In this document: piece by piece, positions 704-46,048 of the stretch
How the letters are laid out: each line of letters begins with the position of its first letter
How positions within the stretch are numbered: the stretch's first letter is position 1
Notes under the pieces: model-generated
The model's input: the letters and a program-made list of their open reading frames with translations, nothing else
Database searches by the model: none
What the model was told of the DNA's origin: nothing
Source: Candidatus Omnitrophota bacterium
GTDB taxonomy: Bacteria > Omnitrophota > Gorgyraeia > Gygaellales > Profunditerraquicolaceae
DNA: 64,000 nt
Reading direction: 5' to 3'
NCBI GenBank assembly: GCA_026387405.1
Contig: JAPLLV010000057.1
Span: 1,503 to 65,502 of the forward strand
Made by a program: the position numbers and the translations under genes

Positions 704-704
704 T

Positions 705-10078: not shown

Positions 10079-10101
10079 GGCAGGAGCGTAATATTAATAT
10101 A

Positions 10102-23752: not shown

Positions 23753-23796
23753 TGTTCATGGTTCTCAATGACCGTTTGGAAATAGAAAATTTAATT

Positions 23797-24347: not shown

Positions 24348-25936
24348 AAAAATATAAACGCCGCAGCCGCATAGGGGGCCAATCGCCCGCCATTCTGAAA
24401 AGGATGGCGGGCTTTTTATTTGCCTGTTTAAACAGGAATAAAACATTAATTATATTAATAAGTTATGTATTTTTAACGAGTTATCTGGTTTACATTGTTG
24501 ATTCCGGTTTTACCGCCGAGACAAGCAGCGCTTCGTACACAGTAGGCCTGCTTACCTTTGTCAACGGCTCGGGGAGCGCCTCTTCGACTAATATCCTGCT
24601 GGAACATTCGATCCTCGGGGATATTGTGGCTACGACTCAGATGTCCAGCGATAAATACGGAGTGGATACCGGCCAGGTTTCTTTGATGCAGCCATTAGGC
24701 AAGGAGAAAATAGAGCTGATTTCCGATTTGAGGGCGCTCACAGGTGTCGCGGGGGTCACCATAAAAGAAGCGGCTTGGCAGAAGCATAATGCCCCTTATT
24801 TTTACTGGCACATAGATACCGCGCGTTCGAGCCTGCTTAAAGGCGTTTCTGTGGCTTTAGACAGGACGCCCGATGAGACCATTGATACCGATAATGATTT
24901 TTATCAATTTGCCGATAATAGTATTTCTTCCGGCAAGCACACCTTTTATGTTATGCCGATTATCGCAAGCGGCCCATACACGGATAATACGCTTAAGTTC
25001 GATATCTGGGTGGATACCGAACCGCCGGTAATACGCAACGCCTTACCGGTGGCCGGTTCTCTTACATCTAACGGAAAAATCCCGATAAGCTGTTTATTGT
25101 CCGACCCTGATTCCGGATTGGATATGAATCTGACCAGACTAAGCTTAAACGGGTCCAACGCCGCGTTCACTTATGACGACAAAAAACAAACCCTTAGCTA
25201 CGCGCCTGATTCCGGTTATCCGGAAGGGAGGAACGCGGTCCTTTTGACCGCTTATGATCTAGTAGGGAATTATATTACGAAGGGTTGGGATTTTATTGTG
25301 GATACGCAGCCGCCGTCAGGAAGCATTTTGATTAATAACGGCGAAGCAGTGACTTCTTCACCTCATGTCTTTTTAAACCTTGACACGCAAGATGTGGTTT
25401 CGGGAGTAAGAAATGTTTATATTTCCAATGACGGAGTGTTCGATACGGAACTAAACCATCCGTATCCTTATAGCGCGATAATTTCTGATTGGCTCCTCAA
25501 CGAGCCGGCTGTTGACGGCCCCAAGACCGTATATGTGAAATTTGATGATCAGGCCGGTAATCTCTCCGAGACTTATAGCGCCGGAATTGAGCTTAAGCTT
25601 CTCGTTCCGCGCACCAGGATCATTTCCGGTCCGGCGAGCGTTACTAATGAGACAACCGCAGAATTTAGATATGAGGCCACAAAGCAAAATTGTAAATTCA
25701 GCTATAAGCTGGATAACGGCGAATGGTCTGTCTGGTCGACCGAGCAGGCAATCGATTTTACGGGCCTGCCCCTGGGTAACCACTATTTTTACGTTAAGAG
25801 CGGACTGGACCTAAACGGCAACGGTGAGATAGGCCTTGATGAAGAGGATCCTACGCCCGCGCAGTGGGTGTGGACCATTACCAACGAAGACGAATTAGGA
25901 AAACAAAAACGTAAGACGTTATTCTGGCGTCGTTAA
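24344..25936 (+). CDS. membrane-anchored surface protein with Ig/Fn3-like repeats (hypothetical; pilus-associated position)
   Basis: N-terminal TM LIILISYVFLTSYLVYIV. Repeated ~100-aa modules begin DTEPPVI / DTQPPSG. 530 aa. Confidence 0.45.
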   Translation: MKKYKRRSRIGGQSPAILKRMAGFLFACLNRNKTLIILISYVFLTSYLVYIVDSGFTAETSSASYTVGLLTFVNGSGSASSTNILLEHSILGDIVATTQMSSDKYGVDTGQVSLMQPLGKEKIELISDLRALTGVAGVTIKEAAWQKHNAPYFYWHIDTARSSLLKGVSVALDRTPDETIDTDNDFYQFADNSISSGKHTFYVMPIIASGPYTDNTLKFDIWVDTEPPVIRNALPVAGSLTSNGKIPISCLLSDPDSGLDMNLTRLSLNGSNAAFTYDDKKQTLSYAPDSGYPEGRNAVLLTAYDLVGNYITKGWDFIVDTQPPSGSILINNGEAVTSSPHVFLNLDTQDVVSGVRNVYISNDGVFDTELNHPYPYSAIISDWLLNEPAVDGPKTVYVKFDDQAGNLSETYSAGIELKLLVPRTRIISGPASVTNETTAEFRYEATKQNCKFSYKLDNGEWSVWSTEQAIDFTGLPLGNHYFYVKSGLDLNGNGEIGLDEEDPTPAQWVWTITNEDELGKQKRKTLFWRR

Positions 25937-25988: not shown

Positions 25989-26002
25989 AACGGAGGCTTA
26001 AA

Positions 26003-29000
26003 ATGAAAAACATATTCACGAAACCCAGCGGTTTCAAATCGGTAATGACCTTCTGTTTTTTTATCATCGCGCTCTTATTTTTCTGGGATACCGTTTTCGG
26101 CGAAATGGCCCGGCAGATATCCTTCCAGGCCAGGATCACCAATAAGGATAAGACGGTACTATCCGGCAGTTTGAGCGTAACCTTCCGTCTTTACTCCGCG
26201 GAAACCGACGGGACTGCCCTCTGGACAGAAACCCAGACTGTTACCGCGGATAGCTCGGGTATAATTTCCTGTTACCTGGGCAGCGTAACGCCGTTTCCCG
26301 ATTCCGTAGATTTCAATACTACATATTACATCTCGCTGGAAGTTAGCGGCGATGGAGAGATGTCTCCGCGTATTAAAGTGGTGCCGACTCCCGCGGCTTT
26401 AAACTCAAGGCTCTTCGACGGCTTGTTATCTTCTCAATTCTTACAGGCAGGAGTACTGACAGTATCCGGATATTTCGCTCAAGATTACACTGGAATTGAC
26501 CACAACGCCATGACTATAAGCTATAGTCCCGCATCAGGCAGTTACAACGCGGTGGATATTTCCTATGGTTCCGCGGGAGGGACCGGCGTTGCCCTTCAGG
26601 TTACCCAGAACGGCACCGGCAATATTATGCAATTGAATTACGACGGCACTCCGCGCATGGTCGTGGAGATGAATGGTAATGTCGGTATCGGCACAACCAG
26701 CCCTTCCCAGGCATTGGAAGTTAACGGGACTGTAAAAGCAACCACTTTCCTGGGAGATGGGAGCAGTTTGAGCGGCCTTTCAGGCGTGATCAGCGGTCTG
26801 ACTACGGGAAAGATTCCTAAGGCAGCCAGCACCACCTCGATAGCTGATTCCGTGATTTACGAAACAAGCAGCAATATAGGCATAGGAACTACGAATCCAG
26901 GTTCAAAGTTAGATGTTTTAGGAACGTTACGTTTATCCGGCTCAACATCGGGATATGTCGGCCTTGCGCCGGCGGCGGCAGCCGGAGCAGCCACATATAC
27001 CTTACCGTCTTCATCAGCGAATGGCTTATTGAAAAATACAGATGGAGCTTTATCCTGGGATACCACAAATTATCTTACCTCAGGCACTATCGCTTCGGGC
27101 ATTACTAATTATTTAGCCAAATATACAGGGACCAGCGCTATCGGCGCTTCCACAATGATCTATGATGACGGCTCAAACATCGGCATTGGCACCACTAATC
27201 CTTTGCAGAAATTACAGGTAGGGGGCGATATTAATATTGAAGGTGGTTCCGGCCTTATGATAAATAATACCGCCGCTTCCGGGCAGTATTTGCGCGGAAA
27301 TGGCACAAGGTTCGTAGATGCGAGCATAGCGGCAGGCGATCTACCAACCGCTATTGATGCGGCAAAGATAGCCGATGGTTCGGTATCAAATGGGGCATTC
27401 CAATATTTGTCCGGCGTGACTTCTGCTGTGCAGACACAGCTTGATAGTAAGGCGCCTAAGGCCGGCCCGATTTTTAGCGGGACCGTTACGGTAGGCAGTA
27501 TGTCCAGCGCCGGTTTTGTAAAAAATGATGCAGCAGGAGTTTTATCCGGAGGCAATACCCTTACCCCCGGCACGGATTTTACCACTGCGAATCTAGTCAA
27601 TGGGACCGGCATTAATATGGGCGGCACTCTGACCAACAGGATCGTTGGTTCAGCAGGTAATGTGACCGTAAATGTATCATCGGGCGTTCCTACATCAGTA
27701 ACAAGCGATACTAATGTCACAGGCTCCATTGCCGACAATGCCTTAACCTTGGGTTGGTCAGGGCAACTTCCTGTATCCAGAGGAGGCACCGGCGCTTATA
27801 CCCTTACCGGCATCCTTAAAGGTAATGGCACCGACGCTTTCACGGCCGCGGTTTCCGGGACAGATTATCTTACTCCCGCAGGGACCCTCACCGGATTAGT
27901 GCAATCTATCGTATCAGGGACTTCTTATATAACCGGCGGTAATTTAGGAATTGGGACTACCGCTCCTTCCGCAAAATTAGAGATCAAGGCCGCAGGCACA
28001 GGCCCGGATGGTTTTGCCTTGCGCGTAACCGATGCGGAGGGCACAGACAAATTAGCTCTTTTAGATAACGGCAATCTCGGTATTGGCACCACCGCGCCCG
28101 GAGCAGCTTTAGAGATCGGCGGGCAAATTAAAATTACCGGAGGCGCTCCCGGGGAAAATAAGGTTTTGATTTCTAATGCCTTAGGGCTTGCCAGCTGGTC
28201 GAGCGCGGCTTCTATTATTGACGCTAATTCTTTGGACTATGATAAATTCAAGGATGCCATGACCCTGGATGCCTCTACCACTGTGAGTTTTGGGAATTAT
28301 GATTATATCTTTGATCTTACCGGTACCGGAAATTTCCGCGCGCAAGATAACGGCAGCGATGTATTTACCGTGAAGAACACCGGCAACGTCGGCATCGGCA
28401 CTACTAATCCCATATCTAAACTCGCGGTTACCGGAAAGATCACGGTTGCCGATGATGCTAATGCCAATGATTCCAACGGCAAGATCTATATCGGCAAAGA
28501 CAGCGGCGGTTCCACCGAAGGCGCCCCGGAAAACGGCTCGCAGTATATTATGTGGAATGACTCTTTTAACGCCGGCGGCAAGACCGGCTGGATGTATGTC
28601 TCAGGCGGTCTGTCCGCGACCAGCATTAATATCCGCAATACCAACACTCTGGTATTCGGCGATACCAACGATACTCCTCAAACGGTGAGTTACAGCCCTA
28701 CCGGCGGCGTAGGCGGTGTAGGCGCGTTTACCTTTTCCAAGGAAATTGTTACTCAGGCGTCAAGCCCTTCCTATCTGACTTTTTCCAAAGCCAATAACAA
28801 CACTTTGTATTCATTGGAGTTCAATCCGGATTCCTCCCCACAGACTTTGCGTTTAGTCAAGAAAGTCAGCGGGGGTTCCATTATTCCTTTGTTTGAATTT
28901 GATACAGCCGGCAGTTTCGGCGTTTTTGATGAGTCCGGCAATAAGAGCACTATTATCAGCCAGGGCCGCCAGTGGCAGCAGGAGTTTAACAACCTGATTT

Positions 29001-32000
29001 TTAACGGTTCCTTTGAGTCCTTTAGCGGCGGCATCTCAGAAGCTCCGACAGGTATGGGGGCTACGCAATACCAAAGCAGTGTTATTGACGGCTGGTTCAA
29101 TTTGGGTGGAGCAAGTATTAGCCGTATCTACGCGCCTTCATTCGGTTACGCGGCCTCCGGCAATGTTAAATTCGGCTATGCCGCAGTCAATGTGTCGGAC
29201 GTATCTTCTTCAGCGGCGCAGGCAATCCAGCAGGAGATCCAGCCGTTTGCTTTACGTGATATTCTTGGTAAACAGATTACCCTTTCAGTTTTTGCCAGGA
29301 ATGGAAATACAGGTTCGGCCACCACGACAATAGGTTTTGAGGCCCAGGATTCCGCAGGCAATAGTATCACTACTAATTTCATCGGTCTTAAGAACAGCCT
29401 GAGCATACTTGATTCAGGTTTTACTTTGTTGAGTTACACCGTTACTGTGCCCACCAATACTTCCAGGTTATTTGTCCGCTTATTCGGCGCTGATGCCTCC
29501 AACGTCACGAACACCGGGGTAGTCATTTATGACGGCGTTAGTCTTGTGTCAGGATCCTTGGTTTCGCCCTTCAGGCCCACGCCGATCGTGGACAGCGGGA
29601 CCCAGACCCAGAAGATCTACGGCGATATGGAAATAGATATGAGCGGCCCCTCAGGCGACATGGCAAATTACGGTGTATCCTCCGGCGGTAACTTGGGTAT
29701 TCAGGGCCAGTTGGCGGTAGGCGGAGGAATTCAAGTCTTCGGCGGTTCAATGACCTTAGGCCGCGGCGGCGCTAATAGCGGTATCTGGGCCTATCCTATG
29801 GGAAACACAAGCGGAACTACTGCCTATAAATACGTAGTTACCTCGGTGAATTCCGGTACTATAGAATCTATGCCCCATCAGGTATATCTTTCTAATGGCC
29901 CGTCAGCACTTACTACGTCTAACTCTATAAATATAGGTTGGAATGTTGATTCCAACGCCTCCAGCTATAAACTGTATGGTCGTTCTCCCAGCAGCTTGGG
30001 ATTAATTGCTTCTGGTTTGACCTCAACCTACTATAATGATAATGGCAGCGTTTCGCCTAATACCGGTGTCCAGCCGCCTACTTTTTATCAAAATGCCTGG
30101 ACCCCACCGGGTTCTTTGACTATGGAAGGCGGCCTGCGCGTCGGAACCGGCGGCAATCCTAGTTATGTCGGCAGCGGCTCCGCCGTATCTTTCGGCAATG
30201 CCTATATCGTCGGCAACCTTGAGGTGGGCGGCACCATCTATGGCGACATTTCCGGAGCGGTAGCCGGCTGGAACAAAGTTGGGACAAATGTCCAATTGAA
30301 AAACATAGGAGATAACGTCGGCATCGGGACGACGGATCCCGGAGCGAAACTGGAAGTTGCGGGGCAGATCAAGATGACCGGCAGTACGCCCGGCGCTGGA
30401 AAAGTTTTGACCTCCGATGCTAATGGTCTTGCGAGTTGGCAGAATGCGACCGGGAATGTGGCATCTGTTTTTGGACGCGCCGGCGCAGTGACCGCTCAGG
30501 CCAATGATTACACCTGGGCGCAGATCGATAAAACGACATCGAGCCTTGCGGATATCACCACGCGGTCTGCCGGAGATTTGAGTTCCGGGAATCTCGCGAT
30601 CGCACGTATGCCCACAGGCGGCGACTGGGGCCTTTCTTCGAATTTGAGCATCAGCGGAGGCAACGTCGGCATCGGGACGACGAGTCCGAGCGCGAAGTTA
30701 GAAATCAGGAGTGATAACAACGGCGGTATCGGTCCTACCTTGATTTTGAGTAATAAAACCGGCGGCGCATTTGGGACATTGGGAAATGCAGCTCAGATTA
30801 ATTTTGGGCTGGATATCTCAGAAGCGCTTACCGAGCCAAATGCGGCTATCCAGGCAATTCTAGAAGATGATTCTAATGCTGCCTCTGGTCTAAGGTTTTT
30901 CACCTTTAATGGTACTGCCAGCGGCGAAAGGGTTAGGATAGCAAATAGCGGCAATGTCGGCATTGGGACGACGGCGCCGGGGAGCAAGCTACATTTACAT
31001 GCCACAGCGATTTCTGGAAGAGAATCGTTGATGAAAGCGACGGTTTCAGATGCTGGGACAGACGCCTTTTACATTGGGAATATTACGAGTGCCGATAATT
31101 GGTTTGTTCCTGCTTTTGCAGGCATGGTTAATTCAACTAACGCAAGGCAAAGTTTGACATTTGCTGGTTTTGTAACTGCGGCTAACGATGCTTCTAATAC
31201 ATCGCCAGTCGTGGATTTCTTAGCTGCAAGAAGCACCTCTACGACTGACCCGCTCAATGGAACTCTTACGGGAATAGCGAACAGAGATTTGTTTGCATTC
31301 AGGACTCTTGATGGTTCTGGTAACAGCGTTTACAAAATGGTTATGAATAGCTCAGGCAACGTCGGCATCGGGACGACCAGCCCTGCCTACAAATTAGACG
31401 TCAACGGCACCCTTAATGCCACTAATATAAATCAAGGGGGAACTGGGCTTATAGATGGGACAGGGACAACAAACTACCTGCCGAAATGGAGTGACAGTAA
31501 TACTCTGACAGGGACCAGCCTTGTTTATGACACCGGCACCAACGTAGGCATCGGGACGACGAGCCCCTCGGCAAACCTCCAGGTTTCTGACGGAAGTTTA
31601 GTCAACTCAGCTCTTATCTCAACGGATAAAATACTTTTAACTTATCAGAATACCGCTCCAGGATTGAGCATTATTTCTGCCGATAATACAACGGCGTCCA
31701 ACAGGGCAGTGTTTAAGGGTGTTCGGTCACGAGGGACATTAGTTTCTCCTCTAGCTCCGTCTACAGATGACGACGTGCTGTCCTTTTTAGGTGCTATATA
31801 CGATGGAACAGCTACGCAAGCAACGGCAATGGTGGGGTTTAAGGTTGATGGGGCGGTTTCTTCGGGCGTGGCTCCGCAAAGAATAAGCTTTATCACATCG
31901 GAAACGACAGGGGCAGCAAGACAGGAAAGGTTAACAATAAAAGCAAACGGCAACGTCGGCATCGGCACTACCAATCCCACTGCCACCCTGCATATAGCTA

Positions 32001-38000: not shown

Positions 38001-41000
38001 ATTCTAATACGGTCGCTTCTCCAGGTATTTTATCTAGTGGTACCGTTAGCCACATTGTCGGAGCAGACGCCGCAGTTAGTCGGATGCTTATTGATGTGTT
38101 TGCTAATACCGCATCTGTTACATTGCGCAAGGCAGACGGGACTGCCGCTAGCCCAACCGCGTTGGCAGCTAATGACCTCATAGGGCAATTTGCTTTTCAG
38201 GGATATGGCACAACTGCTTATTCTACGGCAGCCAAGGCGGCAATGAACGGCTTTGCATCCGAAAATTGGACTGATACAGCACAAGGAACTTATTTAACAT
38301 TTAATACTACACTAAACGGGGCAGCGGGGGCTTCCGAGAGAGTAAGGATAGATAATGCCGGCAACGTCGGCATCGGGACGACAAGTCCAGGATATCCGCT
38401 TCAAGTCGGTAACTATGCATATTTAACAAACGATGGTACTAACGAGTTTGCTATTTTAGGGGCAAAGACAGCAAGTGGTGGTTTAGAACGATTGTTCTTA
38501 GATGCAAATTGGGTTCGTATCGGGACAAATTATTCAAGCCCCGATATAGAGATAAAATCAGGCTACGTCGGTATCGGGACGACGAGCCCGGGATATCTTC
38601 TTGAACTTTACAATGCAGCTAATCCTATCATAAATCTAAAAACGGCCAATTATAGCACTGGTTTTTCTCAATATGAAGGAAGCTGGTACGGTGTTTCAAA
38701 TCCAACGATCATTCAACCGTTGGCTCCAGCGACCTCGCACGATGTTGTAATCACGGGAGTTCAAAATGGCCCGTTATCAGGGATTGTAATTAAATCGACC
38801 GGCAACGTGGGCATCGGGACGACGAGTCCCCAAACCAGCCTTGAGATTGGCTATAAAACACAACGCTATTTGATGTTCTCCGATTCAAGGCTGGCGCATG
38901 GCGTCACCAATTTCGTTCCGACCAATGTCTTTGGTTCATTTGAGCAGTACACCTCCGACGGCCTCGGCGGGTTCATCTTCCGCGGCGTGACCGGCGACGT
39001 TGACCGAACGGCGCTCTATTTCGTCGGCGTCAGCGGCAACGCGGCTCCCACCAACGCTCCGATTGTCTTCCGCGGGGCAAAAAAGAGCGGGGCCGGATAC
39101 ACCGACATGGCGAACAATGAACCGGTGATCCAGTTCCAGTCCGGTTCCACGCCGTTGAACATTATGACGTTCATGGGGAGCGGCAACGTCGGCATCGGGA
39201 CGACGGGTCCTCTGCAGATGTTACAAGTAGGGCAGTTAAGCGGTTCGGCGGTCAGCGATGGACAGTTAGTATTGGCAAAATCCAACGGCGGTCCTAATCG
39301 CGCTTTCAAGATCGGCCTAGACAGCAATTATGCGCTTTCCATCGGTGATTACGGATACCATGCAGGTATTGCATATACTCCGTATTTGACCATGTCCTAT
39401 GCGACCGGCAACGTCGGCATCGGGACGACGGACCCGCAGTATAAATTAGACGTTAATGGAACCGCCAGAATTAGCGGCGTGACTCTGCTATCAGGCGGTT
39501 TATCAGACCTTTCCACCTTGACTGTGACAGGAAATACGAACCTTGCGACAACTTCCGGCAACGTCGGCATCGGGACGACGGCACCCGGAACAAAACTTCA
39601 GGTATCCGGGGATGGAAATGCTAATACATATAGAGGGGTTATAAGAATAGATGATACGGGTACTTCAAAATGGGGAGGAATCGCATTTCCAGATAGCGTA
39701 GGCGCTGCTGATAGTGCCGCGAATAATTATTATTTTATAGGGCGTGGAGATGCTATAGCTAATAGAACTTTCACTATCCATATACCTACAGCAGCTAATT
39801 ATGGCAGTGGCGGGCAGCCGATTTTTGGAGTCTATTCCACAGGGTCGGACCAATTATTTAGAGTTCAGGCTTCTACGGGCGAAACATATATAAAGGGCAG
39901 CCTTGGCATCGGGACGACGAGCCCCGGCTTTACATTGGATGTCAACGGCACGGTTGCTCGTGTGGGTCCGACTGGCAGCGGAGTTGCCTATACTCAATAT
40001 GGAAATAGTGCGACTGATGCTAATAATTATTTAGTAGGTGACGAAAATGGTGATTTTGAATTCTATCAAGGTAAATATGGAGGAACAGGTAACGATCGTA
40101 TGCGTATCAAAGCTGGCGTCAACGTCGGCATAGGGACTGCGAGCCCAAGTGCTAAATTGCATGTAAAAGGAGATGCATATGTCGGCGTTCCTTATTTAGA
40201 TAGCGATACATCCGATAAGACCTTGACTATCGCGACTATGACTACCGGCAAGCCCTATTTATCATTCCAGCAAGGCGGCAATAGCGGTTCTGAAATTTAC
40301 CACGATAATACGTATTTAAACTTCGGAGAAAATAGCGGAGGTTCCCGTTCTGGTCCTTATATGGTAATTAAAACCGCAGGTGCCGGCCAGGGCAGTGTCG
40401 GCATCGGGACGACGACGCCAGTGGCTCCTCTGCAAGTCGTTGGTCGGGCTACCGCCGATTATCTGGACCAGGGACACAGCGATCTTGGAACGAGCGCTTC
40501 ACAATCGGCGCTTTCAACATGGGTCGCGATGGCAAGCGCGACGGTTTCTTACGGCACGGTGGAGGCGAACACGCGCATATATAAAAATGGCGATCTGGTC
40601 GCGGAAAAAGCAACGGCCGGGGCCGGCACATTCAACGTTGTCGCGGGCGACATCATTACCACCAACAATAAACCGGTGGGTCTTGTAGCAGAAGGCGCGC
40701 AGTACAGTATCGTGCCGCTGACCCTTTCCGGCACGCAGTTCGGTTTCTACAGCAGTCGCGACGACCCGCAGATAGTATACGTGTATGCGCCCTACGGTAC
40801 AGCGTATGTTGAGTTCTATCAGGACGCTTATAAAGGCGGCACACCGGCCGCCACGGCCACTGTGGCGCAAGGCCAGATAGCAACACTGACAGGAACAGCA
40901 ACCGTAGCTGCCCATTACAACCGCGTTTATGCTTCATCGCCTGTTATTATGACCAAAGCAGGCACCGGCGGCGACTACGATATCGTATCGCCGGCAAGCC

Positions 41001-44000
41001 ACGAGTTAATTACAGCCCGAGGTTTTTCGAGCTATAGCGGGATGACGGCGGCTACGACAATGACATTGTCGTCCAGTGGCTTATATCTGCACTCCGACAA
41101 CGGGCTTGTCTTTGGCAATGCTATTGGCGACGGCGCGGGTGGAGATACAGATATGGCATTGCCATGGAAAGCTGCGGGCGATACCTATATTATCCCTCAC
41201 GCGGTGTCCGATTTCGGTCTTATATCCCTTGAACCAACGACTGTGCGCGTGTATTACTTAAGTTCCGGTGTATGGACGCTCTATAACTCATATGACCTTA
41301 CTTCCGCTTCGCGCACTACCCCCGCTTATATCACAGTGGGTACGCAGTCGGGTGCTGACGCATACATCATTGCAAGCGGTCCCGTTCTTGTGGTTGGCGA
41401 CAGGCCGTTTTACATACGCCTTAATGACACTGCTGATGATGAATATGCGGCTTTGGGTTATATGTCAGGTTCTCGCTCTCTATTCGGGGGTGTTGACGAT
41501 TGGAATGCGACAGGCGCCAATATGTATTACAACGGCACAGGCAACGTCGGCATCGGGACGACGAATCCGCAGTATAAATTAGACGTTAATGGAACCGCCA
41601 GAATTAGCGGCGTGACTCTGCTATCAGGCGGTTTATCAGACCTTTCCACCTTGACTGTGACAGGAAATACGTACCTTGCGACAACTTCCGGCAGCGTCGG
41701 CATCGGGACGGCGAGCCCGGGAGGTAAGCTTGAAGTTCAAGGCGGGAGAAGTTTCTTCTCGGCATCTAATGAACAGTATGGGGTAGGTGTGAAATATTCT
41801 TCATCTGGCGGTGCCGTCTACTTCGGCGCTACCAGCAGTTCCGGTACTCCTGACGCTGCAATTTCTAATGCTGGTGGCGGTACACTTATGACTTTACAGA
41901 ATGGCGGCAACGTCGGCATCGGGACGGCGACACCTCTGCAGTCTCTATCTTTGGGTATTTTTGCATCACCGAGCGGTGCTTTATTAGGATATGCCAATTC
42001 CGACCAAGCCGGATTAAGTTATTATTCAGCTCAAAACTTTCCAACTGCTGGACAATATGATCGTGTTCTAGACATCAATGCCGGAGGCGGTAATGCCGGG
42101 AGTCATATCAATTTTTTAACGCAGCCGGTTAATGGTTCTTCGGTCATACGAATGAGTATAGATGACACCGGCAACGTCGGCATCGGGACGACAGCGCCGG
42201 GGGCAAAATTGGATATTGAATCGACTACAGCAGATAATCAGATTTATGTCGGAAGTGTCGCACCGAGCATTAGGCTTTCAAACAATGCGGTATTAGCATC
42301 AAGAACCAATGAAGGCGTCATCGCTCTAACGACGACCGCAAACCAGTATATTCCTGGGAGTGTTGTAGGGGATTTGAATATCTATTCAGCAGCCCCAAAT
42401 TCTGGAACCGTCGGAGGAATTTTATTTGGTACTGGCGCTTCACAAGTGGCACGGATGTATATTAAATCAGACGGCAATGTCGGCATCGGGACAACAGGAC
42501 CAATATTCACACTTCAAACTGCAGGTGCTGCTAATGCGGGCGATGGAACATTTATATTAAATGGGGGGGCACAATCGACAACCTTCTTCGACGCATATGT
42601 CGATGGGACCAGCGCTTATCAGCATACGCCAGGTATGATGGTGCGCAAGGATAGTAGTGGCACGCGCATTGACCAAGCGCCGGCCGCGCTCACGCTATTT
42701 AATAATAACGGTACGAATAATACCTGGGTAAAGTTGGTATTAGCGAACAGGGAAGCTTCAGGGACAGGAAATCCCGTGAGCATTGCAGGCATCGCAGCGC
42801 AAAAGACCTCAGGAGCTGCTGCTGCATGGGCATCGGGTGATCTCGTTCTCTGGGCAAAAAACGTTGGATCGCAGGTTGAAGTTTTGAGGGCAACAAGCGG
42901 CGGCAACGTGGGCATGGGGACGACGGCGCCAGGAGCTAAATTGGAAATAAATCTAGGAGGGATTGATCTCTTGCCGGGCGGGAATCCAGCAACTGCAAAT
43001 ATGGTACGTTTCTTCGGCGGCCAAAGTGGTACGATTTGGGGACAACAATGGGATATGAATATTGCAGGAATAAATGTTAATAATAGTAGATTAACGTTTG
43101 CGGGGGGTAATAATTCAGGTAGTTTGCCACAGGCTAATATTCTAACTCTTGTGAATAATGGCAACGTCGGCATCGGCACCACCGCGCCCAATGACCCTCT
43201 GCATATTTATAAGAGCAGCGGCAATGCATATCTTCGTACTGAAGCAAATAATGGAGCGGGGTCGGTTAGGGCTTATACATTCGGCCCGAATACTACTGAC
43301 TGGAATCTTCACGTCAGGGATGCGACTGGGAATTACGATATCATTACAGCCCTATGGTCAAACGGCAACGTGGGCATCGGGACGACAAACCCGGGAGCAA
43401 AATTGGAGGTCAATGGCACGATCACCGCAACCAGTTTCTCCGGAACCTCATCCAATGTTTCACCATACTATTATGTCACTGCTGGTAATGGATATGGAAT
43501 CGGATATTGGTCTGCTGCTCCATCAACCTATGGGACATTTATGAGTAATTCCGCAACATATCAGTATGGAGATGTAAATGACTACTATATTGCCAATGTG
43601 ATGAGTTCGGGCACAGGCAGGGGTTTTACTTGGTCATATGAGACAACTCCCAGCATGGCGTTAAATGCCAGTAGCGGTAATCTTGCTATTAAAGGCATTT
43701 TTAAAGCTAATGGAACAGGAAATAACTATTTCGCCGGTAACGTCGGCATCGGCACGGCGGCGCCGGGTCAAAAACTCACTATTTATGATACTGCTGTTGC
43801 TGGTGTTGCGCTAAGATTGGGGTATTCGGATACTGCTTATTTCGATTTTGCAAGAAATTATTCTACGGGAACGTTATCAATTCAAGGTAATCAAACTGGT
43901 ACTAACAATATTGTGTTAGCACCAACTAGCGGCAACGTCGGCATGGGGATAGCCGCTCCACTTACGGGAGCAAAGCTTGACGTTAGTAATTTACCCGCGG

Positions 44001-46048
44001 CATGGACGGCGCTGGCCAATACCTATGGCGCGACTGCCTTTACGTACCCCTATAGTTCCGATGAAACGACAGCGGCAGATTACGCCGCATTCTTAGGAAG
44101 GGTTGGTTGGTATGGGGGAGCGAACGGTAATACAAGCGTCTATGCCTTCAAAGCGGATGTTGGCAATGGGTCAGCGTCGTGGGGGCACCCTAAAGCTATG
44201 TATTCATTCTACGGAAAGTTGAATACAAACGTTGTAACCCAGGCATATCAGAAGTACTACGGCCTGTATCTTGATTCTGTGACAAAGGATGCCACTACTT
44301 CTCTTGCAGAGAACTGGGGGATCTATCAGGCTGATACGACTGCCAAGAGCTATTTTGCAGGCAACATTGGCATCGGGACGACTGCGCCGGAGGCAAAATT
44401 AGATATTCATGCCGGAGATTCCGGAGCTGACGTTGAAAATATAAGGTTTAGTCGGGGAGACCCTTGGAGGTATAACTCCATTCACAGTTGCTCTTGGACA
44501 GGAGGGAATGCTTTTATATCATTTTTAGTGCATGACGGAGTTGGAGATACTACTCAGGCAACTGTCATGACATTAAAAGGAAACGGCTACGTCGGCATCG
44601 GGACGACGGGGCCGGGGTATAAACTCGATGTGTACCAGGATTCGGATGTGTGGCATGCAAGTTTCGGTGGAAGCACGGGAAGAGTAAAAATAGGCGGGCA
44701 AACTACAGGAAACCGAGGCGTTATACAGGCGACGACCGACCTATTATTGCAACGAGACGGCGGCAACGTCGGCATCGGCACGGCGAGCCCGACACAGAAG
44801 CTCCAGGTCCATGGCAATGTGTACATTGATACGTACGGCCAAATAAAGATGCTTACTGGTAATGCTTGGGGCAGATTTATCGGTCAGTATGCGCAAACCG
44901 GAGCGAACGACGCGCTCTTTATTTCTGATAACTACGATAGAGTTGCGGGAACGATAGACCACACATCGCTTGGCACCGCGGAAATAGAGTTACGCGGAGC
45001 CAATGCCGGCCCGGGAGCGATCTATCTGCGCAGCGGTGCCGTAAATACCGCTCCGACTGATACGCTCACTGTTACCGGCGGCAACGTCGGCATCGGGACG
45101 GCGGCACCGCGGACATCTTTGGACATTCTGACTTCTGGTACTGCGAATGTAAATGGAGATGTACCTCATGGCCTTGTGCTGCAAGGTCCGTCCTATGGTC
45201 TCGGAACATACACTGGCCAGCTGGTCGTGCAATCCAACGATGCTCAAGCCGCAAATATGGGCGGGTCCATTGCATTGGGCGGCAGGTATGTTGATTCGAA
45301 TTCTACGGGCGCTTATTTTGCAGGCATTCAAGGCGCAAAAGAGAATAGCACTTCCGGAAATCTAGCCGGATATTTGGCGTTCAGAACGCGCACTACCGGT
45401 AATGCAGACACGGAAAAAATGCGAATCGACAGCGCTGGTAATATCGGCATCGGGATGGCGGCGCCCGTTGAGCCCCTTCAGGTACATCTTGCCACCGGTA
45501 AGAATGTGGGTTTTTTCAACAGTACACTTCCTGCAGTCGGGTCATTCAATGATAACTTCAGTAGTTGGGGAGATTTACAAGTTGGTCTCAATCTGTACTC
45601 TATGGCCAGCGGCAACGTCGGAATCGGGACGACGGCGCCCGGGGCAAAACTGGAAATTGTGGGCACGAATTCACTGATCAGCAACAATTCCGGGAATATC
45701 ACAATTACGCCCAATACCAATTTAAAAGTGACAACGCAGTATTATTCCGCGAAATATTCGTGCACCACCACATTGAGTTGGGATAACGGCAACGTGCAGT
45801 ACATCCAGCTTGCCGGCGGGGGCAATACGTTTACTTTTGCCAATCCTCAAGGGGGGGGGCGATATCTCCTTATCTTAAAACAGCCGTCCTCTGGTTCTGC
45901 CGGCACCGTGACCTGGCCTGCGGCGGTTTTGTGGTCGGCCGGAACAGCGCCGACGTTAACAGCGACGAACAGTAAAGTAGACATCATTACTTTTGTTTAT
46001 GACGACACGAACAGTAAGTATTACGGCGGCTCGAGTTTGAATTATTAG
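26003..46048 (+). CDS. giant (6,681 aa) secreted tail-fibre-like repeat protein
   Basis: Single uninterrupted reading frame of 20,046 nt. ATG at 26003 is preceded by GGAGG. N-terminal signal anchor (VMTFCFFIIALLFFW). About 60 copies of GNVGIGTTxPxxKLxV are spaced irregularly, with a unique ~110-aa C-terminus. The minus-strand ORFs inside are mirror readings of the repeat. Confidence 0.85.
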   Translation: MKNIFTKPSGFKSVMTFCFFIIALLFFWDTVFGEMARQISFQARITNKDKTVLSGSLSVTFRLYSAETDGTALWTETQTVTADSSGIISCYLGSVTPFPDSVDFNTTYYISLEVSGDGEMSPRIKVVPTPAALNSRLFDGLLSSQFLQAGVLTVSGYFAQDYTGIDHNAMTISYSPASGSYNAVDISYGSAGGTGVALQVTQNGTGNIMQLNYDGTPRMVVEMNGNVGIGTTSPSQALEVNGTVKATTFLGDGSSLSGLSGVISGLTTGKIPKAASTTSIADSVIYETSSNIGIGTTNPGSKLDVLGTLRLSGSTSGYVGLAPAAAAGAATYTLPSSSANGLLKNTDGALSWDTTNYLTSGTIASGITNYLAKYTGTSAIGASTMIYDDGSNIGIGTTNPLQKLQVGGDINIEGGSGLMINNTAASGQYLRGNGTRFVDASIAAGDLPTAIDAAKIADGSVSNGAFQYLSGVTSAVQTQLDSKAPKAGPIFSGTVTVGSMSSAGFVKNDAAGVLSGGNTLTPGTDFTTANLVNGTGINMGGTLTNRIVGSAGNVTVNVSSGVPTSVTSDTNVTGSIADNALTLGWSGQLPVSRGGTGAYTLTGILKGNGTDAFTAAVSGTDYLTPAGTLTGLVQSIVSGTSYITGGNLGIGTTAPSAKLEIKAAGTGPDGFALRVTDAEGTDKLALLDNGNLGIGTTAPGAALEIGGQIKITGGAPGENKVLISNALGLASWSSAASIIDANSLDYDKFKDAMTLDASTTVSFGNYDYIFDLTGTGNFRAQDNGSDVFTVKNTGNVGIGTTNPISKLAVTGKITVADDANANDSNGKIYIGKDSGGSTEGAPENGSQYIMWNDSFNAGGKTGWMYVSGGLSATSINIRNTNTLVFGDTNDTPQTVSYSPTGGVGGVGAFTFSKEIVTQASSPSYLTFSKANNNTLYSLEFNPDSSPQTLRLVKKVSGGSIIPLFEFDTAGSFGVFDESGNKSTIISQGRQWQQEFNNLIFNGSFESFSGGISEAPTGMGATQYQSSVIDGWFNLGGASISRIYAPSFGYAASGNVKFGYAAVNVSDVSSSAAQAIQQEIQPFALRDILGKQITLSVFARNGNTGSATTTIGFEAQDSAGNSITTNFIGLKNSLSILDSGFTLLSYTVTVPTNTSRLFVRLFGADASNVTNTGVVIYDGVSLVSGSLVSPFRPTPIVDSGTQTQKIYGDMEIDMSGPSGDMANYGVSSGGNLGIQGQLAVGGGIQVFGGSMTLGRGGANSGIWAYPMGNTSGTTAYKYVVTSVNSGTIESMPHQVYLSNGPSALTTSNSINIGWNVDSNASSYKLYGRSPSSLGLIASGLTSTYYNDNGSVSPNTGVQPPTFYQNAWTPPGSLTMEGGLRVGTGGNPSYVGSGSAVSFGNAYIVGNLEVGGTIYGDISGAVAGWNKVGTNVQLKNIGDNVGIGTTDPGAKLEVAGQIKMTGSTPGAGKVLTSDANGLASWQNATGNVASVFGRAGAVTAQANDYTWAQIDKTTSSLADITTRSAGDLSSGNLAIARMPTGGDWGLSSNLSISGGNVGIGTTSPSAKLEIRSDNNGGIGPTLILSNKTGGAFGTLGNAAQINFGLDISEALTEPNAAIQAILEDDSNAASGLRFFTFNGTASGERVRIANSGNVGIGTTAPGSKLHLHATAISGRESLMKATVSDAGTDAFYIGNITSADNWFVPAFAGMVNSTNARQSLTFAGFVTAANDASNTSPVVDFLAARSTSTTDPLNGTLTGIANRDLFAFRTLDGSGNSVYKMVMNSSGNVGIGTTSPAYKLDVNGTLNATNINQGGTGLIDGTGTTNYLPKWSDSNTLTGTSLVYDTGTNVGIGTTSPSANLQVSDGSLVNSALISTDKILLTYQNTAPGLSIISADNTTASNRAVFKGVRSRGTLVSPLAPSTDDDVLSFLGAIYDGTATQATAMVGFKVDGAVSSGVAPQRISFITSETTGAARQERLTIKANGNVGIGTTNPTATLHIATGGIRFPDNSYQTSATAGGSVTNIATTAPITGGTITNTGTIGLSYANGLKLSGNDLVPDYGSSANTVAQGNTAVNVNTTGNLSGGATGTAGGGLNVTLNTVNNPTFSTSVTTPILQNASSDLTLQTTTSGNILLSPSGNIGIGTTLPQAKLEIKAAGTSTGFALKVQDSTGADKLAFLDNGSLGIGTTSPGSYKLYVAGDAYLGGLTLSNGSINFGNDLDMQNHLLLNIGNAATDFTTGGGLNLAGNLAVNSTKLFVDATNGNVGIGTTSPTAALTFPAASTGIVLHNAADQTTNTETGFARWSGNSFQIGTNKTGTGTARSLEFFTGGVSRFTLTGAGDYSPTSDNTLFMGLSNKRFYTAYFSNSINIGTGTSPQVYLAASGNSWLTGGNVGIGTTGPIYKIDMLFSNNLAVGDGIRIVNSNTGNLAAAMIRVENNTGSDGRLFKLGSGYSAYKTIVGNDLGFYNYTSGNISILNDVATGKILFAAGAANTAQMLIDTNGNVGIGTTAPLGLLQVGTSPNAPLVVLASGNVGIGTTSPGAKLDIGTGTSADIIFGANTTYTTYNIISTNGVMTDAGFQGFGGGGSAEFYMQAPATGGLHFRTNGNSEKVTILSGGNVGIGTAAPLGLLQVGTSPNAPLVVLANGNVGVGTTSPAQTLDVTGTARITGNVGIGTTASSTYGLYVVGNAYLGGLTLANGGINFGNDLDMQNHMILNIGDAATDFTTGGGLNLVGNLAVNATKLFVDATNGNVGIGTSTPGTAALAIMNGNVGIGTTSPGSIFYVNGSSGAPSTLNSLMTLRDNNTNIGFQMGATTGYGWIRSADILSTAYSGIKVGNGYVSVMDGSTNDKVYVNTTTGNVGIGTTNPGAKFQISGTGVYDASGAARFDLLNTTYGTSWFTHVGDTGNWQVANGAATKLRISPTTNGNMDFFNGTGNVIVNGTGNVGIGTTSPVYKLDVNGTLNATAITQGGVGLIDGAGTANYLPKWSDSNTLTGTSLVYDNGTNVGIGTTSPVQALQVANDFAIDTVNHRVGLGLTNPAYQFTIGSNLSNEATRGITVLQGSDSASAANLNFRKSRGTFASPETVSNHDYLNLTTFYAYTNQWQSPAAFGTFVDGTVSSGVNPVSMLFSTGSANEAYNPFTNNSVRMYLKPDGSVGLGGSMGTMGSFAGSKMVIDTAGNVGIGTTNPTSLLYVAGDANITGTFNAGIFSPFTLSVPGAAYLAYSSGNVGIGTTNPGTKLTVSGSGFNGGYGTFISTDSGNGVLVQGVDGAGINDTAYYAFSDGNSAHNAFIGLVGTAGKGSGNVGDLRFAAGNNTERMRISTGGNVGIGTVSPAYRLNVADVAENTFGRDIVIRNGDETNYWRLSQGINTSGSASAGVPNSSSYLLWEQGGGYGQSGGLAVGTNNAYAGPLMLVSGGSEAVRVLNNGNVGIGTTSPNAPLSIVNAVGRRFILNDSATSYAMGLGINLGQAANSMGAFIGYGDGTAGSSNFEIVSADQAWPYTSYTTRFVVQRGGNVGIGTTGPGAKLEVAGTGVGSGWGTNLSTALVVDGGGLGTTAGSYVYPAEIQNTAGNRLRLQFAPYRRVAGASWQGSAYRMQYAVDNSFTDGGKAYIELGGDDSTSSGGGFVSLGTNGTDRLSILDNGAVGIGIITPYSSLHISNTNPSNAILTLGGGFAGTVDTGGQIVFRTDFGSTDTVGGASIRGLNQWGGESSGQAMDLAFYTNQRTGANAYTGLTERMKITQAGYVGIGTTAPQGRLDVSGITDAGSVYFRSTGRPFLDIKGGANSYSTLRFSDGSDGTYRWDINVNPGNDAQPNALGFWSTTLSAPALTILQSGYVGIGTTSPTSLLDVAGNLNVTGTFSMGAFSPSTLSVPGAAYLAYSSGNVGIGLTNPGAKLDIQTSVLTAPVLRVMNYGNTGNSNFTMTIHTDQPANVGGAYPQYTGAALKVTAFPNASADNAGYVLKVGSDDSSGSSFSPYLVVKAANGNVGIGTASPDAKLTINSNTVASPGILSSGTVSHIVGADAAVSRMLIDVFANTASVTLRKADGTAASPTALAANDLIGQFAFQGYGTTAYSTAAKAAMNGFASENWTDTAQGTYLTFNTTLNGAAGASERVRIDNAGNVGIGTTSPGYPLQVGNYAYLTNDGTNEFAILGAKTASGGLERLFLDANWVRIGTNYSSPDIEIKSGYVGIGTTSPGYLLELYNAANPIINLKTANYSTGFSQYEGSWYGVSNPTIIQPLAPATSHDVVITGVQNGPLSGIVIKSTGNVGIGTTSPQTSLEIGYKTQRYLMFSDSRLAHGVTNFVPTNVFGSFEQYTSDGLGGFIFRGVTGDVDRTALYFVGVSGNAAPTNAPIVFRGAKKSGAGYTDMANNEPVIQFQSGSTPLNIMTFMGSGNVGIGTTGPLQMLQVGQLSGSAVSDGQLVLAKSNGGPNRAFKIGLDSNYALSIGDYGYHAGIAYTPYLTMSYATGNVGIGTTDPQYKLDVNGTARISGVTLLSGGLSDLSTLTVTGNTNLATTSGNVGIGTTAPGTKLQVSGDGNANTYRGVIRIDDTGTSKWGGIAFPDSVGAADSAANNYYFIGRGDAIANRTFTIHIPTAANYGSGGQPIFGVYSTGSDQLFRVQASTGETYIKGSLGIGTTSPGFTLDVNGTVARVGPTGSGVAYTQYGNSATDANNYLVGDENGDFEFYQGKYGGTGNDRMRIKAGVNVGIGTASPSAKLHVKGDAYVGVPYLDSDTSDKTLTIATMTTGKPYLSFQQGGNSGSEIYHDNTYLNFGENSGGSRSGPYMVIKTAGAGQGSVGIGTTTPVAPLQVVGRATADYLDQGHSDLGTSASQSALSTWVAMASATVSYGTVEANTRIYKNGDLVAEKATAGAGTFNVVAGDIITTNNKPVGLVAEGAQYSIVPLTLSGTQFGFYSSRDDPQIVYVYAPYGTAYVEFYQDAYKGGTPAATATVAQGQIATLTGTATVAAHYNRVYASSPVIMTKAGTGGDYDIVSPASHELITARGFSSYSGMTAATTMTLSSSGLYLHSDNGLVFGNAIGDGAGGDTDMALPWKAAGDTYIIPHAVSDFGLISLEPTTVRVYYLSSGVWTLYNSYDLTSASRTTPAYITVGTQSGADAYIIASGPVLVVGDRPFYIRLNDTADDEYAALGYMSGSRSLFGGVDDWNATGANMYYNGTGNVGIGTTNPQYKLDVNGTARISGVTLLSGGLSDLSTLTVTGNTYLATTSGSVGIGTASPGGKLEVQGGRSFFSASNEQYGVGVKYSSSGGAVYFGATSSSGTPDAAISNAGGGTLMTLQNGGNVGIGTATPLQSLSLGIFASPSGALLGYANSDQAGLSYYSAQNFPTAGQYDRVLDINAGGGNAGSHINFLTQPVNGSSVIRMSIDDTGNVGIGTTAPGAKLDIESTTADNQIYVGSVAPSIRLSNNAVLASRTNEGVIALTTTANQYIPGSVVGDLNIYSAAPNSGTVGGILFGTGASQVARMYIKSDGNVGIGTTGPIFTLQTAGAANAGDGTFILNGGAQSTTFFDAYVDGTSAYQHTPGMMVRKDSSGTRIDQAPAALTLFNNNGTNNTWVKLVLANREASGTGNPVSIAGIAAQKTSGAAAAWASGDLVLWAKNVGSQVEVLRATSGGNVGMGTTAPGAKLEINLGGIDLLPGGNPATANMVRFFGGQSGTIWGQQWDMNIAGINVNNSRLTFAGGNNSGSLPQANILTLVNNGNVGIGTTAPNDPLHIYKSSGNAYLRTEANNGAGSVRAYTFGPNTTDWNLHVRDATGNYDIITALWSNGNVGIGTTNPGAKLEVNGTITATSFSGTSSNVSPYYYVTAGNGYGIGYWSAAPSTYGTFMSNSATYQYGDVNDYYIANVMSSGTGRGFTWSYETTPSMALNASSGNLAIKGIFKANGTGNNYFAGNVGIGTAAPGQKLTIYDTAVAGVALRLGYSDTAYFDFARNYSTGTLSIQGNQTGTNNIVLAPTSGNVGMGIAAPLTGAKLDVSNLPAAWTALANTYGATAFTYPYSSDETTAADYAAFLGRVGWYGGANGNTSVYAFKADVGNGSASWGHPKAMYSFYGKLNTNVVTQAYQKYYGLYLDSVTKDATTSLAENWGIYQADTTAKSYFAGNIGIGTTAPEAKLDIHAGDSGADVENIRFSRGDPWRYNSIHSCSWTGGNAFISFLVHDGVGDTTQATVMTLKGNGYVGIGTTGPGYKLDVYQDSDVWHASFGGSTGRVKIGGQTTGNRGVIQATTDLLLQRDGGNVGIGTASPTQKLQVHGNVYIDTYGQIKMLTGNAWGRFIGQYAQTGANDALFISDNYDRVAGTIDHTSLGTAEIELRGANAGPGAIYLRSGAVNTAPTDTLTVTGGNVGIGTAAPRTSLDILTSGTANVNGDVPHGLVLQGPSYGLGTYTGQLVVQSNDAQAANMGGSIALGGRYVDSNSTGAYFAGIQGAKENSTSGNLAGYLAFRTRTTGNADTEKMRIDSAGNIGIGMAAPVEPLQVHLATGKNVGFFNSTLPAVGSFNDNFSSWGDLQVGLNLYSMASGNVGIGTTAPGAKLEIVGTNSLISNNSGNITITPNTNLKVTTQYYSAKYSCTTTLSWDNGNVQYIQLAGGGNTFTFANPQGGGRYLLILKQPSSGSAGTVTWPAAVLWSAGTAPTLTATNSKVDIITFVYDDTNSKYYGGSSLNY

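Follow-up and report, generated by a model that had tools for sequence, protein, structure and literature searches.

A giant, probably secreted protein of Candidatus Omnitrophota with homology to MAT and phage tail fibers, encoded beside a conserved secretin/pilus cluster

Mosaic adhesive trimers (MATs) are phage-like trimeric fibers on the surface of the predator Bdellovibrio that end in diverse adhesive tips, and one of these fibers binds prey glycans (Caulton et al., 2024, PMC10769870). Each of the 21 MATs carries a conserved β-rich domain of ~130 aa directly after the signal peptide. The surface partner of this N-domain is described by the authors as unidentified, with a possible interplay with type IV pili being of interest to them. 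The solved MAT fibers are ~4 nm wide, and a capping loop with the consensus V-G-G/N-π-x-x-P-x-x-x-L is found on the edges of their trimeric β-helix. Supplementary Table S3 of the same study lists relatives of 417–1,915 aa in other predators and host-dependent lineages, including one 713-aa protein of Candidatus Omnitrophica (PMC10769870). Here, we describe a 20-kb gene that probably encodes a giant fiber of the MAT type. It lies in a stretch of 64,000 nt from a Candidatus Omnitrophota bacterium (assembly GCA_026387405.1, contig JAPLLV010000057.1, positions 1,503 to 65,502 of the forward strand), which was analyzed as a whole and is called the window below.

Omnitrophota cells measure ~0.2 μm, and their type IVa pilus clusters and giant open reading frames (ORFs) have been linked to host dependence, with the functions of these ORFs being called obscure because of their few annotated domains (Seymour, 2023, PMC10066038). 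Giant ORFs of more than 20 kb adjoin type II secretion system (T2SS), type IV pilus (T4P) or Tad clusters in this phylum (PMC10066038; 10.1101/2023.11.21.568195; 10.64898/2026.06.07.730766). The literature thus agrees with a first-pass annotation of this DNA, which mentioned giant genes beside T2SS/T4P genes in Omnitrophota, and the window itself comes from Candidatus Omnitrophica. The described giants are mostly 30–147 kaa (thousand amino acids) long and rich in transmembrane helices, often with SecA/DEAD, dockerin, enzyme or Pfam-repeat content. Tail fibers and MATs go unmentioned in the two preprints on these ORFs (West-Roberts, 2023, 10.1101/2023.11.21.568195; 10.64898/2026.06.07.730766, from 2026), and none of the papers searched links MATs with Omnitrophota giants or with a secretin operon.

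The longest ORF of the window spans positions 25958–46048 (+) and its frame is open throughout. The probable start, as read from the sequence, is the ATG at 26003, located 6 nt after a Shine-Dalgarno-like GGAGG. The product is identical over its full length, including the start, to NCBI entry MCX5697582.1 (NTU54_06430), which is annotated as ‘hypothetical protein’ on a 69,246-bp contig of a Candidatus Omnitrophica metagenome-assembled genome (MAG). The single frame of 20,046 nt reported in the first-pass annotation is confirmed. The giant protein is the sole member of its 90% cluster. It has a predicted mass of 677 kDa, a pI of 4.9, only 4 Cys and 103 NxS/T sequons, and is dominated by Gly (14.8%), Thr (11.3%), Ala (9.8%), Ser (9.5%) and Asn (7.7%). 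Neither Pfam nor NCBIfam models identified a domain in the whole protein or its parts, even at E ≤ 10. The gene and its parts are as follows.

25992..25996, + strand: Shine-Dalgarno-like GGAGG, read from the sequence
26003..46048, + strand: giant fiber gene, 20,046 nt, encoding 6,681 aa plus stop, with 0 internal stops
26003..26101, + strand: probable Sec-type signal peptide (aa 1–33) with probable cleavage at VFG/EM, based on hydrophobicity and the sites of relatives
26102..26452, + strand: conserved N-domain of ~115 aa (aa ~34–150), the presumed cell-proximal docking end, based on homologs and absence from viral contigs
26453..45733, + strand: predicted fiber shaft of ~60 modules, each closed by GNVGIGTTxPxxKL[DEQH][VI], based on homology to MAT β-helices and PHROGs
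28445..30307, + strand: insert 1, 620 aa (aa 815–1435), motif-free, seen as a gap between motifs
40487..41479, + strand: insert 2 domain of ~330 aa (aa ~4829–5159) with three small sandwich/jelly-roll subdomains, based on predicted structure and fold search
45734..46045, + strand: C-terminal tip of ~105 aa (aa ~6578–6681), a sandwich of the phage tail-fiber C-terminal type, presumed receptor-binding, based on an AlphaFold2 (AF2) model, PHROG matches and fold search

The shaft makes up most of the protein and is built on the motif GNVGIGTTxPxxKL. Searched with a loose pattern, it is present in 57 copies; the core [VIL]G[IVM]G[TILAS] occurs 60 times and the strict form GN[VIL]GIGT 41 times, in line with the ~60 copies counted earlier. 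Shuffled sequences contain 0.2 on average and never more than 2. The spacing had been given as irregular and between 70 and 150 aa. It is indeed irregular (median 88 aa, range 19–643 aa), but the range applies only to 31 out of 56 gaps, with 17 being shorter and eight longer. The two longest gaps correspond to the motif-free inserts (aa ~815–1435 and ~4725–5175).

In homology searches the repeats matched fiber families, which bears out the earlier impression of a tail-fiber-like motif. PHROG tail-fiber families match along the shaft (phrog_9942, E 1.8e-90; phrog_18345, E 3.7e-66; phrog_3269). A sequence search of the PDB matched a single group, the fibers of Bdellovibrio bacteriovorus, with E-values from 7e-13 to 1e-4 and the chains 8oml and 8on4 (Bd1334), 8ond (Bd2133), 8ol4 (Bd2439) and 8ojn (Bd3182). 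About 105 aa preceding one motif (aa 4034–4140) align to the part of 8oml that represents the full Bd1334 β-helix. The capping-loop alignment in the MAT paper (NVGIGATAPTAKLE, NVGIGATSPSAKLQ, AVGIGTTNPSGILH, RVGVGTTAPTSALH and others) shows the repeat motif of the giant protein, which is by sequence the capping loop known from MAT and S74 β-helix fibers. The giant protein thus has the capping-loop β-helix shaft that characterizes MATs, in 57–60 copies. All-against-all BLAST interlinked 55 out of 61 inter-motif segments, and the shaft therefore appears to be ~60 variations on one module of common ancestry. The comparison defined no module subfamilies, as everything fell into one single-linkage cluster.

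The motif is also nearly uniform in its codons (GGC AAC GTC GGC ATC GGG ACG in the 39 strict copies within 26003–46045). Compared to gene-wide codon use, Asn is encoded by AAC in 79% of the cases (34% gene-wide), Val by GTC in ~80% (22%), Ile by ATC in 87% (34%) and Thr by ACG in 67% (21%). The 17-mer GGCAACGTCGGCATCGG occurs in 26 copies in the giant gene and is absent from the rest of the window. Relatives write the same amino-acid motif with mixed codons. We therefore rejected the nucleotide uniformity as a universal DNA signal; it rather implies that the motif has been homogenized within this gene, presumably by gene conversion or recent segmental duplication. The 17-mers may then serve as many short recombination substrates for the reshuffling of modules.

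At the N-terminus, the giant protein has one hydrophobic segment (aa 8–36), with no other 19-aa window reaching a Kyte-Doolittle value of ≥1.6. The first-pass annotation had called this segment a signal anchor. The lone signal segment stands. Relatives have AxA-like sites at the place corresponding to VFG/EM (AFA/E, FAA/P, ADA/G), which makes a cleavable Sec signal more likely than a permanent anchor. The proteins most similar to the giant in the adjacent N-domain come from Candidatus Omnitrophota MAGs (44–59% identity); all are partial and encoded on short contigs. A pattern scan over one genome per species confirmed more than 517 bacterial loci, of which the best 80 were analyzed in detail. 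These belong to Omnitrophota, Saccharibacteria and other Patescibacteria, Planctomycetia, Bdellovibrionales, Margulisiibacteriota and others, a taxonomic picture that is shaped by the search patterns and the ranking. The same scan found the N-domain in none of 2.9 million viral contigs.

The ORFs that start with this N-domain vary between 130 and more than 3,400 aa. Peptidase_S74 is the most common Pfam domain in the complete proteins (7 out of 35), next to YadA head, CBM_4_9, β-helix, propeller, Kelch and Gly_rich_2 domains. A comparison with fibers carrying a C-terminal intramolecular chaperone, as drawn in the first-pass annotation, is thus valid for the family and fails for the giant protein, which has no S74 domain (see below). 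In the giant protein the signal segment at aa 8–36 is followed by this domain of ~115 aa, and the domain is shared with the Bdellovibrionales-labeled loci L068 and L080 and with S74-ending fibers. Position and size indirectly suggest that the N-domain may be the counterpart of the MAT N-domain.

The first-pass annotation ended the protein with a unique domain of ~110 aa, and its C-terminus is indeed a distinct and confidently folded domain of ~105 aa. The AF2 model of this tip alone is a ten-strand β-sandwich (predicted local distance difference test score, pLDDT, 90.8; predicted template modeling score, pTM, 0.80). The C-terminus matches phrog_24774 and phrog_9017 (‘tail fiber protein’), and a comparison with predicted viral structures yielded 195 proteins at E ≤ 1e-3, the top one being a ‘Tail fiber protein’ (TM-score 0.83, 36% identity). 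Peptidase_S74 (PF13884) was found neither in the whole protein nor in its C-terminal 152 aa, even at E ≤ 10. The giant protein is therefore assigned to the non-S74 class: in the place of the SDxxxK chaperone-protease of the S74 subgroup it has a different β-sandwich. The tip is absent from the only complete orthologous fiber (locus L006, see below), which suggests that tips have been swapped. A conserved N-terminal end combined with diverse, independently folding tips is again an organization typical of MATs.

Some sequence relatives of the tip are fragments with the capping-loop motif immediately before it. Others are proteins of 154–230 aa in siphophage tail-fiber modules, partly annotated as PF26209 (Phage_phiTE_241_C) and surrounded by genes for Phage_tail_L, NlpC/P60, GpJ, Peptidase_S74 and Phage_tail_APC. 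Two of these loci (L081 and L082) clearly represent tail modules of phages. We also found a 206-aa protein on a 39-kb contig (L083, 10001–10621, P0025) with 66% identity to the tip of the giant protein. L083 was not retained as a firm phage, since it has weak tail matches only and its contig is ‘probably’ phage. The kinship suggests a recent module exchange between phage and Omnitrophota fiber, or a shared target.

Insert 2 interrupts the shaft with a second domain that is modeled with high confidence (pLDDT >90 over ~330 aa). The model is all-β and consists of sandwiches resembling carbohydrate-binding modules (CBMs), with no catalytic fold. In the fold search it came closest to TM1070, the Anabaena sensory rhodopsin transducer, CBMs and parts of phage fibers. 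Homologs of this domain are found together with S74, Laminin_G_3, pentaxin and Gly_rich_2 domains.

The giant gene is preceded on the same strand by a secretion/pilus cluster with the following genes, between which a 369-aa protein without assigned family is encoded (between the PilM/PilN-like and the secretin gene).

9056..10078, + strand: GspF/PilC-like platform protein, based on profile models
10075..10500, + strand: prepilin-type minor (pseudo)pilin (RGFTLIEIL)
10825..13179, + strand: large GspK-like protein with lamin-tail domain, based on a weak T2SSK match
13933..15453, + strand: PilM/PilN-like assembly protein, also matching the Amuc_1101 family
16636..19890, + strand: secretin of 1,084 aa, best model GspD, then PilQ
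20097..21758, + strand: GspE/PilB-like ATPase with MshEN domain
21908..23452, + strand: polytopic membrane protein with C-terminal tetratricopeptide repeats (TPR)
23698..24347, + strand: GspJ-like pseudopilin gene, split in two frames at a T9 run (24042–24050)
24344..25936, + strand: signal-anchored protein with immunoglobulin (Ig)-like domains (weak Big_13 match), directly preceding the fiber gene here and in loci L001–L003
25947..25986, no strand assigned: perfect hairpin of the repetitive extragenic palindromic (REP) type between the Big_13 and giant genes, without T-tail and not a canonical terminator

The gap before the giant gene is 66 nt long, holds only the REP-type hairpin and shows no terminator or strong promoter-like site. 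The window contains 11 copies of the hairpin arm CCAGACCCGCGGTGG, where 0.05 would be expected, and two copies of the full hairpin. The arrangement proposed earlier, a pilus/secretion cluster upstream with a REP hairpin as the only element in between, is hence correct. We were not able to type the machine as T2SS, type IVa pilus or MSHA. GspD, GspE and GspF score best, followed closely by PilQ, PilB and PilC, and no model reaches its curated cut-off; we therefore refer to it as a divergent T2SS/T4P-like machine.

This linkage is conserved. In the six closest loci (N-domain 48–59% identical, all Omnitrophota) the fiber gene comes directly after genes of a homologous cluster in all six cases, with the following gene orders.

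L001–L003: secretin, ATPase, TPR protein, pilin, Big13, fiber, as in the window
L004 and L005: secretin, fiber
L006 (1.57-Mb contig): GspF...secretin, fiber (3,143 aa), ATPase

The local gene order varies among these loci while the adjacency of fiber and cluster is kept, with a secretin identity of 48–72%. We should note that the six loci come from related genomes and do not represent independent events, and that the fiber ORFs of L001–L005 run to the contig ends, as expected in short-read assemblies, so that their sizes are lower bounds. The fiber of L006 (9749–19180; Omnitrophota MAG STB_25) contains a pretoxin-HINT/intein-like domain in the middle of its shaft (aa 988–1105), which hints at an autoprocessing or toxin-delivery variant.

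Several features of the cluster deserve mention in their own right. The secretin is unusually long due to a Lys/Glu/Gln-rich, coiled-coil-like N-terminal extension of ~600 aa ahead of its N-domains and secretin domain, the L006 ortholog being 824 aa long. The N-terminal membrane half of the TPR protein (~390 aa) has no family match; by eye it resembles a glycosyltransferase of the GT-C/PMT type, and it is conserved beside the ATPase in L001–L003. Such a protein could glycosylate the pilins or the Thr/Ser/Asn-rich fiber. The T9 run in the pseudopilin gene (CAG TTT TTT TTT ATC, with the heptamer T_TTT_TTA) occurs with the same -1 frame break in L001 (4863) and L003 (7951), and within one continuous ORF in L002 (5881). 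Its conservation across species at 33–42% aa identity speaks in favor of programmed -1 frameshifting or slippage during transcription rather than an error in sequencing, and the site could switch the pilus/fiber system.

Compared to the described systems, the giant protein most resembles the MATs. It shares with them the same capping-loop motif, the matched β-helix regions and a swappable tip, and its signal peptide is followed by a conserved domain of comparable size (~115–130 aa) that may correspond to the MAT N-domain. It differs in length (6,681 aa against ~600–1,150 aa in strain HD100 and 417–1,915 aa in the listed relatives, ~3.5 times the longest), in its ~60 capping loops, of which there are only a few in the solved fragments, and in the two large lateral inserts. 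Its tip is unlike the S74, TNF-like and C-type lectin tips or the Bd2133/Bd1334 sandwiches of MATs and is a phage tail-fiber C-terminal sandwich instead. In addition, its gene lies within a T2SS/T4P-like operon, a setting unreported for MATs. With phage fibers and tailspikes (T5 pb1, K1F endosialidase; PHROGs 9942, 18345, 3269 and 9017) it has the motif, the shaft modules, the tip and the logic of a trimeric β-helix in common. Unlike these, it contains a Sec signal and a cell-specific N-domain instead of a virion-attachment domain, lacks S74, exceeds their typical length more than 10 times and has a chromosomal rather than a phage context.

The other Omnitrophota giants share the phylum, a gene of ~20 kb or more with few annotations, the location downstream of a secretin/GspE/GspF cluster (gspD, gspE, gspF) and a proposed role in attachment. 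Yet the giant protein has a signal peptide only and no transmembrane helix, no Pfam domain, and MAT/tail-fiber modules. The transmembrane helices, SecA-DEAD, dockerin and enzyme domains of the Archaeovorin/dockerin/multi-enzyme giants are all missing, while the location next to a T2SS/T4P-like cluster is the same. As in the trimeric autotransporters YadA and BadA and the giant RTX/Bap-type adhesins, we find a very long, repetitive, probably trimeric protein with a presumably adhesive distal end, and YadA-head domains occur in some of the proteins that start with the N-domain of the giant protein. In contrast to these adhesins, it has no C-terminal β-barrel anchor, type I secretion signal, RTX/Ig repeats or Pfam match, and it is oriented the other way round, its N-terminus presumably being the end at the cell.

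We propose that the giant protein is a non-S74, MAT-type trimeric adhesin that is exported or anchored by the machine encoded next to it, and assign a probability of roughly 0.6 to this explanation as a whole. That it is an adhesive fiber of the MAT type seems highly probable; a role of the adjacent machine in its export or anchoring is close to an even bet. Starting from the observed reading frame, repeats, homology to MAT and phage fibers, folds of the tip and insert 2 and conserved synteny, we infer that the fiber is a trimer, as well as its length, its display at the surface, the route of its export, its ligand and its target, as follows. The 677-kDa chain would pass the inner membrane by Sec, with removal of the signal peptide. 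Three chains (~2 MDa in total) would intertwine into a thin fiber of ~60 stacked β-helix-type modules with capping loops. The conserved, cell-specific N-domain would remain at the cell to dock the fiber, and the tip, and probably the sandwiches of insert 2, would bind surface molecules of a host or prey, most likely glycans. When scaled from the dimensions of Bd1334, Bd2133 and Bd3182 (0.28–0.72 Å per residue, giving 186–479 nm), the fiber would be ~0.2–0.5 μm long, i.e., at least as long as the ~0.2-μm Omnitrophota cell, and may act as a long-range tether. Its gene would be co-transcribed with the divergent T2SS/T4P-like machine (GspF, pseudopilins, PilM/N, secretin and GspE), which may carry the fiber over the outer membrane via the secretin, anchor its N-domain, or both. 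The Sec signal and the operon linkage are compatible with a substrate of type II secretion, a category for which there is no defining sequence signature. The first-pass annotation had likewise inferred a long surface fiber or adhesin aided by the adjacent machinery and possibly serving to attach to prey or host cells. As inferences, both parts gain support, the former from homology to the surface-displayed, prey-binding fibers of Bdellovibrio and the latter from the synteny with a secretin cluster in six out of six orthologous loci.

A number of points weigh against this proposal. The oligomeric state and length of the fiber are derived from homology to solved fragments, which cover ~2–5% of the protein. 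The likeness of the N-domain to the N-domains of B. bacteriovorus MATs is indirect, being one of position and size, and the ‘Bdellovibrionales’ protein L068 contains a single motif and lacks a clear MAT tip. How MAT fibers are exported is unexplained even in Bdellovibrio (PMC10769870). By our own estimate, three copies each of the insert 2 domain and of insert 1, if folded, might be too bulky for a secretin. The remaining 74 of the best 80 N-domain loci have no PilB or secretin homolog within 10 kb, so that the linkage of fiber and cluster is a property of this clade rather than of the family. Finally, insert 1 could hold an enzyme.

The alternative that survives best retains the MAT-type fiber but considers the neighboring machine unrelated to its export or anchoring. 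The fiber would then take another route, and the synteny would reflect co-regulation or descent within a clade. The unexplained export of MATs in Bdellovibrio, the 74 loci without a nearby PilB or secretin, the kinship of the six syntenic loci and the bulk of the lateral inserts, which by the same estimate may not fit a secretin, all speak for it. On the other hand, the arrangement has persisted despite secretin and N-domain identities as low as 48% (48–72% and 48–59%, respectively), the adjacency has been kept through different orders (after Big13, after the secretin, between secretin and ATPase), and there is neither a terminator nor a promoter between gene and cluster. We consider this alternative unlikely.

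It is quite unlikely that, besides adhesion, insert 1 provides an enzyme (a depolymerase, lysin or toxin) that turns the fiber into a weapon degrading cell walls or capsules. Insert 1 has no homologs among 5.8 billion proteins in a word-index search, no Pfam family and, as its sole PDB match, one with E 0.35, results that would be compatible with an enzyme. Earlier work has connected giant proteins of Omnitrophota with the degradation of cell walls, depolymerases are frequent on phage fibers, and the L006 ortholog contains the pretoxin-HINT domain mentioned above. However, no catalytic family or fold was found in Pfam, NCBIfam, PHROGs, PDB sequences or two fold searches, and by eye insert 1 looks like a jelly-roll-like stretch (NLIFNGSFE...VIYDGVSLV) and an FN3-like one, i.e., like binding modules.

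A structural role as coat, matrix, S-layer-like fiber or freely secreted T2SS substrate, serving as a scaffold of the envelope, of aggregates or of a biofilm with no specific recognition, has in our view a low probability. A Gly/Thr/Ser/Asn-rich, acidic and nearly Cys-free composition would also suit a matrix protein. Yet the polar architecture, in which a conserved, cell-specific N-terminal end is combined with an exchangeable tip like those with which phages bind receptors, follows the logic of a directional adhesin and not of a lattice, the lateral domains are CBM-like, and the characterized relatives bind prey glycans.

We regard it as highly improbable that the 20-kb ORF is an assembly artifact, either a chimera or a mis-joined repeat array. 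Orthologous genes do break short-read assemblies (the ORFs of L001–L005 reach the contig ends), the 17-nt core is present in 26 exact copies and the longest exact internal repeat measures 105 nt. However, the unbroken frame has a proper signal, N-domain and tip at its ends, and a complete ortholog of 3,143 aa exists on the 1.57-Mb contig of L006. No tandem arrays were found within the gene at the DNA level and there are no long near-identical repeats, with all module sequences being distinct and the longest diverged duplicates measuring 183–248 nt at 84–92% identity, which makes a collapse or expansion of repeats in the assembly unlikely. Least probable of all, with hardly any chance of being true, is a prophage, tailocin or otherwise phage-derived tail-fiber gene in the place of a cellular adhesin, since the PHROG tail-fiber matches and a tip common to phage fibers (with at most 66% identity, to a protein whose contig is probably from a phage) are opposed by the Sec signal peptide, an N-domain found in 0 of 2.9 million viral contigs, flanks with secretion, pilus and housekeeping genes and no phage structural, packaging or lysis genes, and the embedding in a conserved cellular secretion operon.

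The remainder of the window contains further elements of potential relevance, among which the following are repeated or mobile.

13392–13431, 25947–25986, 48756, 49780, 53054, 53318, 53809 and 61979: REP-like elements
47987–48658 and 53158–53793: Y1_Tnp genes (IS200/Y1 transposase, similar to REP-associated tyrosine transposases, RAYTs), downstream of the giant gene

Together, these resemble a REP/RAYT system, here in a genome of Omnitrophota. The region immediately upstream of the secretion cluster (663–7436) encodes an Rhs/TcdB/SpvB-type polymorphic toxin of 2,257 aa with SpvB, FG-GAP, TcdB_toxin_midN and RHS-repeat domains and an unannotated C-terminal region. Its presence beside the cluster fits an antagonistic lifestyle. 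Directly downstream of the giant gene, two small secreted proteins are encoded, namely a 179-aa DUF4082 protein with a signal peptide (46089–46628) and a protein of 370 aa that has a signal peptide, a glycine-rich domain of the ALK/LTK type and an FN3-like end (46756–47868). No homologs of either were seen in the related loci.

The MAT family and its presence in Omnitrophota were already known, as were giant ORFs beside T2SS/T4P/Tad clusters in this phylum. The present locus adds the size and module number (~60 capping loops and a length ~3.5 times that of any listed relative's maximum), the assignment of an unannotated Omnitrophota giant to a structurally understood family and the conserved embedding of the fiber gene in a secretion/pilus operon. 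One giant Omnitrophota ORF may thereby be read from end to end as a phage-like adhesion fiber for which polarity, number of modules and binding tip can be stated.

The operon linkage in six out of six loci provides a specific and testable candidate for the partner of the MAT N-domain. In its most explicit form, which we put forward as speculation that is more apt to fail than to hold, the N-domain docks the trimeric fiber on the co-encoded pilus/secretin machine, either at the tip of the pseudopilus or in the secretin, and a cell of ~0.2 μm extrudes, and perhaps reels in, a line of 0.2–0.5 μm that catches host or prey cells with the phage-type receptor-binding domain at its end. If this were true, it would identify the export and anchoring partner of MAT fibers in general and provide a structure and mechanism for one class of the giant Omnitrophota ORFs that lack annotation.

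The tip shared with phage fibers (up to 66% identity) suggests that receptor-binding modules are exchanged between phages and cellular predators or symbionts, which could help to predict who attaches to whom in uncultured communities. Tentatively, and given the bias in the sample of the best 80 loci, the spread of the N-domain over Omnitrophota, Saccharibacteria/Patescibacteria and Bdellovibrionales suggests an attachment toolkit that is shared by predators and epibionts. For the Omnitrophota cell itself, an organism thought to depend on contact with its host or prey, the giant fiber would be a long-range tether.

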